From Escherichia coli (GTDB lineage Bacteria; Pseudomonadota; Gammaproteobacteria; Enterobacterales; Enterobacteriaceae): DNA of 64,000 nt. The notes below the pieces were generated by a model. It saw only the letters and a list, made by a program, of their open reading frames with translations. It was not told the DNA's origin and ran no database searches. The stretch is taken from assembly GCF_003334405.1 (NCBI RefSeq), contig NZ_QOWM01000017.1; one strand, 5' to 3'. Below are positions 2,313-63,971 of this stretch, one piece after another (within the stretch, counting starts at the first letter, position 1; every line of letters starts with the position of its first letter). Made by a program: the position numbers and the translations under genes.

Positions 2313-2316
<4 letters not shown>
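1666..2316 (+). CDS. casE: CRISPR repeat endoribonuclease CasE/Cas6e (216 aa)
   Basis: Track ORF 1528..2316; start moved to ATG 1666 (MYLSRITL..., the conserved Cas6e N-terminus), 19-bp overlap with casD; C-terminal GCG motif (FGCGLM); 4-bp overlap with cas1. Confidence 0.8.
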
Positions 2317-3526
<1,210 letters not shown>

Positions 3527-3622
3527 GTTATCCGTTCTTTAAAAATAAGGAAATGTTTTAATTTAGTTGGTAGATTGTTGATGCGGAATAAATTTGTTTA
3601 AAAACAGTTATGTATGCTTAGT
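3527..3622 (+). promoter_or_regulatory. CRISPR leader (AT-rich; expected array promoter and IHF/integration-proximal region)
   Basis: 96-bp AT-rich segment between the cas2 stop and the first repeat; leader identity inferred from position and composition. Confidence 0.65.
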
Positions 3623-4688
3623 GTGTTCCCCGCGCCAGCGGGGATAAACCGAACATTAAATTGCCGTGCTGGATGAATCGCGGGTGTTCCCCGCGCCAGC
3701 GGGGATAAACCCTGGATCAGCTGGTTCAATCGTTTACAGCACTGGTGTTCCCCGCGCCAGCGGGGATAAACCGTCGAAAAACTTCGTCCTGAAAAAATTC
3801 ATCATGTGTTCCCCGCGCCAGCGGGGATAAACCGGCAGTAAATTATTTGACCTCGTTGATAATCCCGTGTTCCCCGCGCCAGCGGGGATAAACCGCCGGT
3901 GCAACTGATATTGATAAACGTCGACTCGTGTTCCCCGCGCCAGCGGGGATAAACCGACACCCGACCGCTAACCGATTTCGTTACAGTAGTGTTCCCCGCG
4001 CCAGCGGGGATAAACCGTGTATCACCGAAAGAATGGTTTGACGCGCAGGGTGTTCCCCGCGCCAGCGGGGATAAACCGACGTCTATCATTTTCAGTACAA
4101 GCTGGGTTTTGTGTTCCCCGCGCCAGCGGGGATAAACCGGACGATCCCGAGATTCACAGAGTTACAACTAAGTGTTCCCCGCGCCAGCGGGGATAAACCG
4201 GAAATTTTCACATGGATTGTAGCCCTGTATATGTGTTCCCCGCGCCAGCGGGGATAAACCGGCCAGGCGGTCGGATTAGGTGCAAATCAAAATGTGTTCC
4301 CCGCGCCAGCGGGGATAAACCGCGCTGGCGGTGCGAGTGCTGGAGGCGCTGAAAGTGTTCCCCGCGCCAGCGGGGATAAACCGCAGGAGACGGCCAGCCG
4401 GAACGGCGGCGGCGTGTGTTCCCCGCGCCAGCGGGGATAAACCGATTGTTATAATTATTTATTGAAATATCATTCCGTGTTCCCCGCGCCAGCGGGGATA
4501 AACCGAATCTATTGTGAATTTGAAATGGTCCAGCACTGTGTTCCCCGCGCCAGCGGGGATAAACCGGGTAAAAACACGGTCTGAACCGACATTCATGTGT
4601 GTTCCCCGCGTCAGCGGGGATAAACCGGGCGCACTGGATGCGATGATGGATATCACTTGGAGTTCCCCCGCCCCTGCGGTAGAACTCC
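3623..4688 (+). CRISPR. Type I-E CRISPR array: 18 x 29-bp repeats, 17 x 32-bp spacers
   Basis: Repeat GTGTTCCCCGCGCCAGCGGGGATAAACCG starts at 3623, 3684, 3745, ... 4599 with exact 61-bp period; repeat 2 ends in C, repeat 17 has C>T (GCGTCAGC), and terminal repeat 4660-4688 (GAGTTCCCCCGCCCCTGCGGTAGAACTCC) is degenerate. Spacers are unique. Confidence 0.97.
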
Positions 4689-4709
4689 CAGCTCCCATTT
4701 TCAAACCCA

Positions 4710-5747
4710 TCAAGACGCCTTCGCCAGCTCCTTCACCAACGGTAGCATTATCCGCATAACGTCACGGCAGCGACGTTCTATTCTTCCAGGAAGTGCCTTA
4801 TCAATATGCTGTTGATTATCCAGTCTTACGTCATGCCAGCTATTTCCCGCAGGGAATGCGGCTGTTTTTGCGCGTTGCTGATAACCATCCTTATTCCCAA
4901 GATTCCAGTTAGTCGCTTCCACCGAAAGTACAGCAATGCCCGCTTTGTCGAATATTTCTGCGTCATTACAACACCCAGTGCCTTTCGGATAATTTTTATT
5001 CAAACCCGGATTGGTCGTTGCGGCTATTCCGTGACTGCGCGCAATTGCCAGCGCCCTGTCGCGCGTTAATTTCCTTACTGCTTCAGGGGTTTTTACACCG
5101 CTGTTGAAATACAATTTATCGCCAACAATTAAGTTATCGAGATTAATCACCAGCAGCGTATTTTTCTTTTCGGTGTCACTCATCCGCTTGAGTAAATTCT
5201 CAGCGCCTAATTTCCCTTCCTCTTCGCCGCTGGTCGCCACAAATCGAATACCATACTCGGTAGGCGTATTTTTCAGGCGTTCTGCCAATTCCAGCATGAC
5301 ACCTAAACCTGCGGCGTTATCATCCATTCCTTGTAACGTCAGCCCGCCGAGATTGGCATCGGCGTCAGCATCGCTCAGCGGGGCGTAAGTATCCAGATGC
5401 GCCATAATGATGATCTGCTGCGGCGCTTTGCCTTCATGAGCGGCAATCACCGTACTTCCTGTCACGTTATGCCAGTTCTTGCGATTATCGCGGGCGGTAT
5501 AAATATACCGACTATTAAATGTCCGAATATCACTGCGATAACCCATTTGCTGAAACTGTTGGCGAATATAATCGGCAGATAACATTTCTGCTGGAGTTCC
5601 GGTCATGCGTCCCGGAAAGAAAGTAGCAATATGTCGTGCCTGGGTATTAGCAAAATCGCCAGGTTTAGGTGACGAGGCGTGTACGGGGAGAATAAAGCAT
5701 ACGCCGAGCGCTAGGGCAGCGGTACGGTGGCGCAATGCGGAAAACAT
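4710..5747 (-). CDS. iap: Alkaline phosphatase isozyme conversion aminopeptidase (345 aa)
   Basis: Track ORF 4710..5747 (-); signal-peptide-like N-terminus, M28-type peptidase motifs; conserved position between CRISPR array and cysD. Confidence 0.9.
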   Translation of the reverse strand: MFSALRHRTAALALGVCFILPVHASSPKPGDFANTQARHIATFFPGRMTGTPAEMLSADYIRQQFQQMGYRSDIRTFNSRYIYTARDNRKNWHNVTGSTVIAAHEGKAPQQIIIMAHLDTYAPLSDADADANLGGLTLQGMDDNAAGLGVMLELAERLKNTPTEYGIRFVATSGEEEGKLGAENLLKRMSDTEKKNTLLVINLDNLIVGDKLYFNSGVKTPEAVRKLTRDRALAIARSHGIAATTNPGLNKNYPKGTGCCNDAEIFDKAGIAVLSVEATNWNLGNKDGYQQRAKTAAFPAGNSWHDVRLDNQQHIDKALPGRIERRCRDVMRIMLPLVKELAKAS

Positions 5748-63683: not shown

Positions 63684-63776
63684 GGTGAGGTGGCCGAGAG
63701 GCTGAAGGCGCTCCCCTGCTAAGGGAGTATGCGGTCAAAAGCTGCATCCGGGGTTCGAATCCCCGCCTCACCGCCA
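63684..63776 (+). tRNA. serV: tRNA-Ser (anticodon GCU)
   Basis: GGTGAGGTGGCCGAGAGGCTGAAGGCGCTCCCCTGCTAAGGGAG...GGGGTTCGAATCCCCGCCTCACCGCCA; long variable arm, encoded CCA. Confidence 0.95.
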
Positions 63777-63779
63777 TTT

Positions 63780-63856
63780 GCATCCGTAGCTCAGCTGGAT
63801 AGAGTACTCGGCTACGAACCGAGCGGTCGGAGGTTCGAATCCTCCCGGATGCACCA
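63780..63856 (+). tRNA. argV: tRNA-Arg (anticodon ACG)
   Basis: GCATCCGTAGCTCAGCTGGATAGAGTACTCGGCTACGAACCGAGCGGTCGGAGGTTCGAATCCTCCCGGATGCACCA; 3 bp after tRNA-Ser. Confidence 0.95.
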
Positions 63857-63971
63857 TATTCTACGTACTTTCAGCGATGAAGGTATGGAAGAGGTGGCGG
63901 TAATAACCGCAGGCACCAGGGAGGATAACGTTGCTTTAGCAACGGCCCGAAGGGCGAGCCGCAAGGCGAGT

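Follow-up and report, generated by a model that had tools for sequence, protein, structure and literature searches.

The CRISPR array at positions 3623-4688 of the window (the whole 64,000-nucleotide stretch of Escherichia coli DNA analyzed here) is almost certainly an ordinary E. coli type I-E array of the 'A' variant: an inherited subset of a longer array that is shared across a clade and aimed at prophages and phage-plasmids. It occupies the E. coli cas2-iap locus, which has been named CRISPR2.1, CRISPR1, or CRISPR I. The locus, the variant, and the spacer content were already known; what is new is limited to a deletion junction between spacers S13 and S14, a trivial difference between alleles. 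The features of the locus are as follows.

1-927, + strand: cas7e (casC), 3' part, truncated by the window start (NCBIfam TIGR01869, 1.4e-80, profile positions 134-325)
938-1684, + strand: cas5e (casD) (NCBIfam TIGR01868, 7.5e-47, over the curated cutoff)
1666-2316, + strand: cas6e (casE), repeat-specific endoribonuclease (NCBIfam TIGR01907, 6.6e-86)
2313-3236, + strand: cas1e (NCBIfam TIGR03638, 2e-114)
3233-3526, + strand: cas2e (NCBIfam TIGR01873, 4.4e-39)
3527-3622, + strand: leader, 96 bp, 26% GC, directly after the cas2e stop at 3526
3623-4688, + strand: CRISPR2.1/CRISPR1 array, repeats R1-R17, degenerate terminal R18 (4660-4688), and spacers S1-S17
4628-4659, + strand: spacer S17, ancestral anchor spacer, identical to the last spacer of K-12 MG1655
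4710-5747, - strand: iap, conserved distal boundary (NCBIfam NF007568, 1.1e-212)

The 29-nt repeat GTGTTCCCCGCGCCAGCGGGGATAAACCG (+ strand) occurs in 17 near-exact copies from 3623 at an exact 61-bp period, the last copy starting at 4599. Fifteen of the 17 are exact, and all have at most one mismatch to GTGTTCCCCGCGCCAGCGGGGATAAACCG. Repeat 2 (3684-3712) has C instead of G as its final base, and repeat 17 (4599-4627) carries a C>T change at repeat position 13, which sits in the hairpin loop. The 18th repeat (4660-4688) is degenerate, with 13 of its 29 positions off consensus. The chance expectation of such matches, determined from 100 dinucleotide-preserving shuffles of the window, is 0, and a mismatch-tolerant search found no further copies with six or fewer mismatches elsewhere in the 64-kb window. 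The 17 spacers are each 32 nt long and all distinct, their GC content ranging from 16% (S14) to 78% (S13). S1 lies at 3652-3683, successive spacers start 61 bp apart, and S17 ends at 4659. These results reproduce what a preliminary description of this DNA had reported, namely 18 repeats at a 61-bp period from 3623 (our 17 near-exact copies plus the degenerate 18th) with 17 spacers of 32 nt, a repeat 2 that ends in C, the C>T in repeat 17, and a degenerate repeat 18. The letters quoted there for three example spacers, S1, the GC-rich S13, and the AT-rich S14, are exact.

Both the repeats and the adjoining genes agree with the assignment to type I-E made in that description, and no finding speaks against this identity. 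The repeats match the E. coli type-2 consensus of about 29 nt and alternate with 32-nt spacers. Each repeat contains a palindromic core, the predicted Cas6e hairpin, followed by what would be the 8-nt AUAAACCG handle. For the repeat RNA, folding gave a 7-bp stem capped by a 4-nt loop (a tetraloop) at -15.2 kcal/mol (z = -3.2). A search for a CRISPR repeat family in Rfam, over the whole window at gathering thresholds and over positions 3500-4750 with E up to 0.01, returned none; no family in the Rfam copy used reached threshold.

All five cas genes in the window exceed the NCBIfam curated cutoffs. The start coordinate of cas6e was taken from the annotation of strain N18-04097, whose sequence is 100% identical here, and many E. 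coli have a cas7e that is 100% identical to the part in the window. The genes cas3, cse1 (cas8e), and cse2 (cas11) are expected upstream of window position 1. In N18-04097, whose segment from cas7e through cas2e and the leader is 100% identical to that of the window, the upstream operon is complete, with cas3, casA, casB, cas7e, and the subsequent genes present and intact. Downstream of the array, iap is annotated as such in all relatives, and it is followed by cysD, cysN, and cysC. The array is thus found at the chromosomal site between cas2 and iap. Its AT-rich leader is at the cas2 side, as the preliminary description had noted, along with the 96-bp length. Many complete E. coli genomes match the 3.6-kb cas-leader segment at 100% identity, and the same holds for the 7.3-kb distal flank.

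The array was assigned to the 'A' variant through its repeat, leader, Cas proteins, and protospacer-adjacent motifs. The repeat starts with GTG; read on the other strand it is CGGTTTATCCCCGCTGGCGCGGGGAACAC, ending in AACAC, compared to AACTC in K-12, and it equals the CRISPR-A consensus of PMC3737337. The leader is 100% identical to that of N18-04097 and other strains. The K-12 leader can be aligned to it, with many differences and a conserved block, TCTTTAA.AATAAGGAAATGTT. Cas1 has 83% identity to K-12 Cas1 over the 212 amino acids compared, and Cas2 has 86% identity to K-12 Cas2. Ten of the protospacers described below have ATG motifs. According to PMC3737337, CRISPR-A repeats are linked to leader-A and cas-EO, and the K-12 variant is CRISPR-T/leader-T/cas-EK. 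Through this published linkage to the CRISPR-A repeat, the leader and cas genes of the window would carry the labels leader-A and cas-EO.

Compared to the CRISPR2.1 'A' variant described by Diez-Villasenor et al. (2013, PMC3737337), the array has the same cas2e-iap site, 29-nt repeat, 32-nt spacers (33-nt units), AT-rich leader, and mostly CAT (=ATG) motifs. There is no difference of kind; what is particular here is which internal spacers it has lost, together with the S13|S14 junction. The comparison with CRISPR I of K-12 MG1655 (the locus of Ishino 1987) is different. The locus, the terminal spacer S17, the C>T change in the penultimate repeat, and the degenerate last repeat are the same; however, the K-12 repeats start with GAG rather than GTG, its leader is of another type, and its reported motif preference is AAG. 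The other 12 K-12 spacers are all different. It had been remarked before that the spacer set is not the K-12 reference array, and indeed K-12 shares S17 alone.

None of 5,426 complete E. coli assemblies contains an identical array, but a search with the spacers joined into one query showed that 3,947 of them have at least one of the 17 spacers in their arrays. Each spacer from S1 to S17 was found in other complete E. coli genomes, and in the 12 arrays that were fetched and compared their relative order is always kept. The nearest complete genome found is that of N18-04097 (NZ_CP047277.1), whose array reads S1 S2 u1 S3-S12 S14-S17 and therefore has 16 of the 17 spacers in the same order. N18-04097 has a spacer, u1, between S2 and S3 and is without S13, whereas the window array has S13 and is without u1. 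The 50 kb downstream of the array in N18-04097 are 99.984% identical to the window. S13 is found in SHP24, NCTC9041, NCTC9100, and IAL7250. Related arrays that share spacers with the window array are those of 1303, SHP24, NCTC9041, NCTC9100, G4/9, H1, IAL7250, and NCTC9087.

The arrays of the relatives can be combined into a pan-array that reads (u19 u20 u21) S1 S2 u1 S3-S9 u22 S10-S13, a block of about ten other spacers, and S14-S17. The window array equals this pan-array minus u1 (between S2 and S3), u22 (between S9 and S10), and the block of at least seven (about ten) spacers between S13 and S14. These losses presumably occurred through recombination between repeats. The S2|S3 junction is shared, at 100% identity, with six complete genomes. 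In contrast, the S13|S14 junction occurs in none of the 5,426 complete E. coli genomes and is the sole unique item of this allele in that collection. At the leader end, S1 and S2 are common to at least ten of the 12 arrays examined, and near the leader the arrays of H1 and B379 have three more spacers, which the window array lacks. Because S1-S17 are all shared, and S1-S2 are common to at least ten arrays, the window array contains no private, recent acquisition, and its individuality lies in internal deletions.

A reading of the 17 spacers as this strain's private record of the phages and plasmids that it met recently can be dismissed with great confidence: it could draw on the lack of an identical array or of the S13|S14 junction in the complete assemblies, and on the difference from the K-12 array, but every spacer recurs elsewhere in the same order, 16 of them in N18-04097 and the leader-end pair in at least ten arrays, the differences between arrays are internal losses rather than gains at the leader end (where H1 and B379 have three spacers more), and contamination, which might rescue it, is implausible for more than ten independent genomes. 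The preliminary description had called the spacers strain-specific and an unread record, and that part of it does not hold. The comparison of spacer order that it had proposed did succeed in placing the strain, in the clade that shares the S1...S17 pan-array. It had also stated that interest in the array would fall if the spacers turned out to be catalogued, and this is essentially the case, all 17 being present in other sequenced E. coli. A search of the full-text literature with six of the spacer strings found no paper; catalogues of spacers are kept in supplements or databases.

Targets were searched with the concatenated spacers against phage, plasmid, and E. coli genome collections and in six IMG/VR scans; each match was located, and its flank was read. 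Thirteen of the 17 spacers matched protospacers or diverged homologues, and all of the matches are to temperate elements of Enterobacteriaceae, namely prophages of two families, phage-plasmids of the P1/P7 type, and a Mu-like portal gene. Prophages of the first family (A) combine lambda-like head genes with P2-like contractile-tail genes with examples in HCP5S3_I2, W284, and SE11 and, as an induced phage, vB_EcoM-569R10. Prophages of the second family (B) have P2-type head genes (GPO, gpM, ogr), with examples in N1420 and LZSFT34. The principal matches, with positions in the window, are listed here.

3652-3744, + strand: S1 and S2, family B, P2-type head genes GPO/gpM/ogr
S1: family B, strain N1420, 2 mismatches, ATG
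S2: family B GPO scaffold gene, 1 mismatch, flank AGT
3835-4049, + strand: S4-S7, family A, all four with an ATG motif
S4: family A gp25/W gene, 2 mismatches, ATG
S5: family A tail sheath gene, 1 mismatch, ATG
S6: family A baseplate J gene, 0 mismatches, ATG
S7: family A terS fragment, 1 mismatch, ATG
4079-4110, + strand: S8, family B terminase large subunit gene, 32/32, ATG, LZSFT34 and others
4201-4232, + strand: S10, small membrane protein gene, IMGVR_UViG_2529293142_000021, 32/32, ATG
4384-4415, + strand: S13, Klebsiella phage Kp4866-3, 28/32, ATG, diverged match
4445-4476, + strand: S14, intergenic, end of a family B phage, IMGVR_UViG_3300012155_000058, 32/32, ATG
4567-4598, + strand: S16, P7 upf94.2, Salmonella phage SJ46, and more than 100 P1-like plasmids, 32/32

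The contig matched by S10, IMGVR_UViG_2529293142_000021, is 72-79% identical to the family A tail regions, and the contig matched by S14, IMGVR_UViG_3300012155_000058, is 95.7% identical to the LZSFT34 prophage. The lost spacer u1 also matches family A, with 0 mismatches and an AAG motif. Two further spacers match family B weakly, S3 (5 mismatches, AAG) and S11 (5 mismatches, ACG). The S13 match is annotated on Klebsiella plasmids as a DUF935 protein, which we take to be the Mu-like portal. The flank of S16 in P7, the sole perfect S16 target read for its flank, is CTG, and lxr of P1 matches S16 in 28 of 32 positions with an ATG motif.

An ATG motif adjoins the protospacers of ten of the 13 matched spacers (S1, S4-S8, S10, S13, S14, and S16 in P1), compared to a chance expectation of 1/64 per site. 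The flanks conform to AWG (CWT on the other strand), with the exceptions of S2 (AGT), the weakly matching S11 (ACG), and S16 in P7 (CTG). The mismatches in diverged matches fall into a single codon phase: positions 5, 17, and 20 for S4, positions 5, 8, 11, 17, 26, and 29 for S6, and three of the four mismatches for S13. The diverged matches are real homologues, because of this restriction to one codon phase and because of the excess of ATG. Weak matches with E between 2 and 10, in Enterococcus, Vibrio, Mycobacterium, Rhizobium, and others, were rejected as chance; they are partial, cross a junction in the concatenated query, or come from unrelated hosts. S9, S12, S15, and S17 had no match outside CRISPR arrays in the phage, plasmid, and E. 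coli collections or in IMG/VR, the latter searched with an N at every 6th position. A search for self-targeting found no site with fewer than 10 mismatches within the 64-kb window. The preliminary description had read the array as a record of past phage and plasmid encounters of the lineage, and had suggested searching the spacers against phage, plasmid, and Enterobacteriaceae genomes and inspecting the protospacer flanks for the type I-E motif.

These target and motif results reproduce published findings (PMC3737337, PMC10910852). Diez-Villasenor et al. (PMC3737337) found CAT (=ATG) at 34 of 55 protospacers of leader-A arrays and demonstrated by experiment that cas-EO uses CWT. Dion et al. 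(2024, PMC10910852) reported that prophages are nearly the only targets of E. coli CRISPR1 spacers, that the known phages targeted most are P1, RCS47, and SJ46, that 78% of spacer clusters are already present in sequenced genomes, and that the leader end is not enriched in rare spacers, with arrays remaining stable over years. The window array does not differ from the anti-prophage repertoire they described and is one more example of it: its targets are temperate, P1/SJ46-type matches are among them, most protospacers are found only in bacterial genomes, and the array is stable and shared.

The clusters of spacers against the same family might have arisen in bursts of primed adaptation, a process established for E. 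coli I-E (PMC3338789, PMC6568314). Six spacers fall to each family (S4-S7, u1, and S10 to family A; S1, S2, S8, S14, and weakly S3 and S11 to family B), and S4-S7 are contiguous in the array, with their targets within about 13 kb of one prophage. However, repeated independent encounters with very common prophages give the same pattern. We considered protospacer strand bias as proof of priming and rejected it, the bias being 4:2 in each phage family (S5, S10, S3, and S14 counted), which is not significant. We regard priming as unlikely to be the source of the clusters.

If the array works through the established E. coli I-E pathway, it would be transcribed from the leader on the + strand. A simple consensus scan for promoters and terminators found no sigma-70 promoter in the leader, its sole site being at chance level and inside spacer S14; the promoter function ascribed to the leader would follow from the K-12 literature. 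By analogy with the same pathway, Cas6e would cut the repeats at the 3' base of the hairpin, yielding 61-nt crRNAs in which an 8-nt AUAAACCG handle at the 5' end is followed by 32 nt of spacer and a 3' hairpin of 21 nt. Cascade with its crRNA would then find double-stranded protospacers with an AWG motif, and Cas3 would degrade the target. New 33-bp units would be inserted at the leader end by Cas1-Cas2.

The array may be an inert relic, the system being silenced by H-NS or decaying, so that the spacers provide no immunity now and change by neutral deletion alone. Several findings point in this direction. There are no private leader-end acquisitions, and the relatives vary by deletion. Four of them, 1303, G4/9, IAL7250, and H1, have kept the array despite deletions or frameshifts in cas genes, which suggests that selection on the system may be weak in this clade. 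The perfect S16 target in P7 lacks an AWG flank. Published accounts of E. coli I-E describe a system that is inactive in the laboratory, where H-NS silences it, and arrays that stay stable over years (PMC10910852). On the other hand, the cas genes in the window are intact open reading frames with full scores against the family models, and the operon of N18-04097 is complete. The extra leader-end spacers of H1 and B379 show that acquisition continued within the clade. Among the matches listed, which are a sample, there is no self-targeted prophage, that is, no genome with both these spacers in its array and the matching prophage; Dion et al. likewise call self-targeting of resident prophages rare and argue for an anti-prophage role (PMC10910852). 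Weighing both sides, we consider the inert relic a serious contender, though somewhat more doubtful than probable.

The opposite reading, that the array, given an intact cas operon, is a present-day, lineage-level barrier to lysogeny by the two prophage families, both very common in E. coli, and P1/P7 phage-plasmids, is improbable in our judgment. If it were true, the prophages and phage-plasmids that the clade is unable to acquire could be predicted from its spacers, and P1/P7 types often carry resistance genes; S9, S12, S15, and S17 would then point to temperate elements that have not been sequenced so far. The idea of a lysogeny barrier has itself been published (Dion et al. 2024), and only the specific map of spacers to prophages would be new. 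Because the array is an ordered subset shared across the clade, with no gain at the leader end and with temperate targets, it represents an inherited, population-level memory against prophages and phage-plasmids and not the personal history of the strain.

The value of the array is mainly in strain typing, since it assigns the strain to a clade with members from pigs, cattle, and humans, in which the S1...S17 pan-array is shared. It is one more allele of a well-described locus, and the map of its targets confirms the published conclusions on CRISPR1 and opens no new question.

The distal end of the array shows the same inheritance at a deeper level. K-12 and all relatives checked have the same C>T change in repeat 17, the same spacer S17, and the degenerate terminal repeat, which in K-12 differs at one position. 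Because of this sharing, the distal features are an old inheritance at the level of the species. The preliminary description was right about the polarity, with the oldest spacers beside iap, and about the repeat variants, but the decay is not particular to this array, as K-12 has it too.

The C that ends repeat 2 accompanies S2 in all of the relatives that have this spacer, and we therefore rejected the possibility that it is a recent mutation. The 33-nt unit that is inserted in E. coli I-E starts with the base counted as the last of the 29-nt repeat, and this base comes from the protospacer (PMC3737337). Because this base belongs to the inserted unit, the C was more likely brought in from the donor together with S2 than produced by decay of the repeat. 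In the closest S2 protospacers found, this base is T or G (flanks AGT and AGG), with no canonical AWG motif; the position varies among the donor homologues.

Downstream of the array, window positions 4648-54648 were compared with the corresponding region of N18-04097 (NZ_CP047277.1), the nearest complete genome found. Over these 50 kb the two are 99.984% identical, with 7 mismatches and 1 gap between them. The genes follow the usual order (iap-cysDNC-ftsB-ispDF-truD-surE-pcm-nlpD-rpoS-ygb/otn-mutS-hyp/hyc-asc-hypF-nor-srl), and neither an island nor a prophage was found within window 4648-54648. The features discussed below are as follows.

14777-15769, plus strand: rpoS, with an in-frame TAG at codon 217
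63684-63856: tRNA-Ser(GCT) and tRNA-Arg(ACG) genes at the window end
63800-63871, minus strand: additional tRNA-Arg(TCG) called by ARAGORN

The premature stop in the window rpoS occupies positions 15425-15427; around this codon the wild-type protein reads ...LRLNERITSVD.... As predicted from the sequence, the truncated RpoS would lack region 4. In N18-04097 the lesion is another one: rpoS has lost 1 nt at nt 632 and is annotated as frameshifted. Different lesions in two almost identical genomes indicate that rpoS was lost independently in each.

The tRNA pair at the window end lies where the serV-argV cluster is expected from the K-12 map. The minus-strand tRNA-Arg(TCG) call overlaps a plus-strand tRNA gene and is probably spurious.

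Long arrays of the window's lineage are retained in E. coli strains 1303, G4/9, IAL7250, and H1 despite damage to their cas operons. Strains 1303 and G4/9 each have a cas3 pseudogene fused beside a shortened cas2e; in IAL7250, a casA fragment adjoins cas2e, and in H1, cas1e is frameshifted. IS421 directly follows the array in both IAL7250 and NCTC9087; in N18-04097 it lies upstream of cas3.

Spacer S16 has protospacers in P1/P7-type phage-plasmids. The protospacer in P7 is perfect and is flanked by CTG, and an AAG lies three bases farther upstream; the one in P1 has 4 mismatches and is flanked by the canonical ATG. The flank of the perfect match was read in P7, and perfect matches also occur in more than 100 P1-like plasmids. 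If it is true that elements matching S16 perfectly have lost the PAM, this would hint at past escape.

The two targeted prophage families, represented by the prophages of strains HCP5S3_I2 (family A) and N1420 (family B), are unrelated in sequence. In different strains, one chromosomal site adjoining yecA holds either the family A or the family B prophage; the yecA-side flanks of HCP5S3_I2 and N1420 are 97.7% identical over 10 kb. In HCP5S3_I2, the annotation places a tRNA-like fragment at the end of the prophage.
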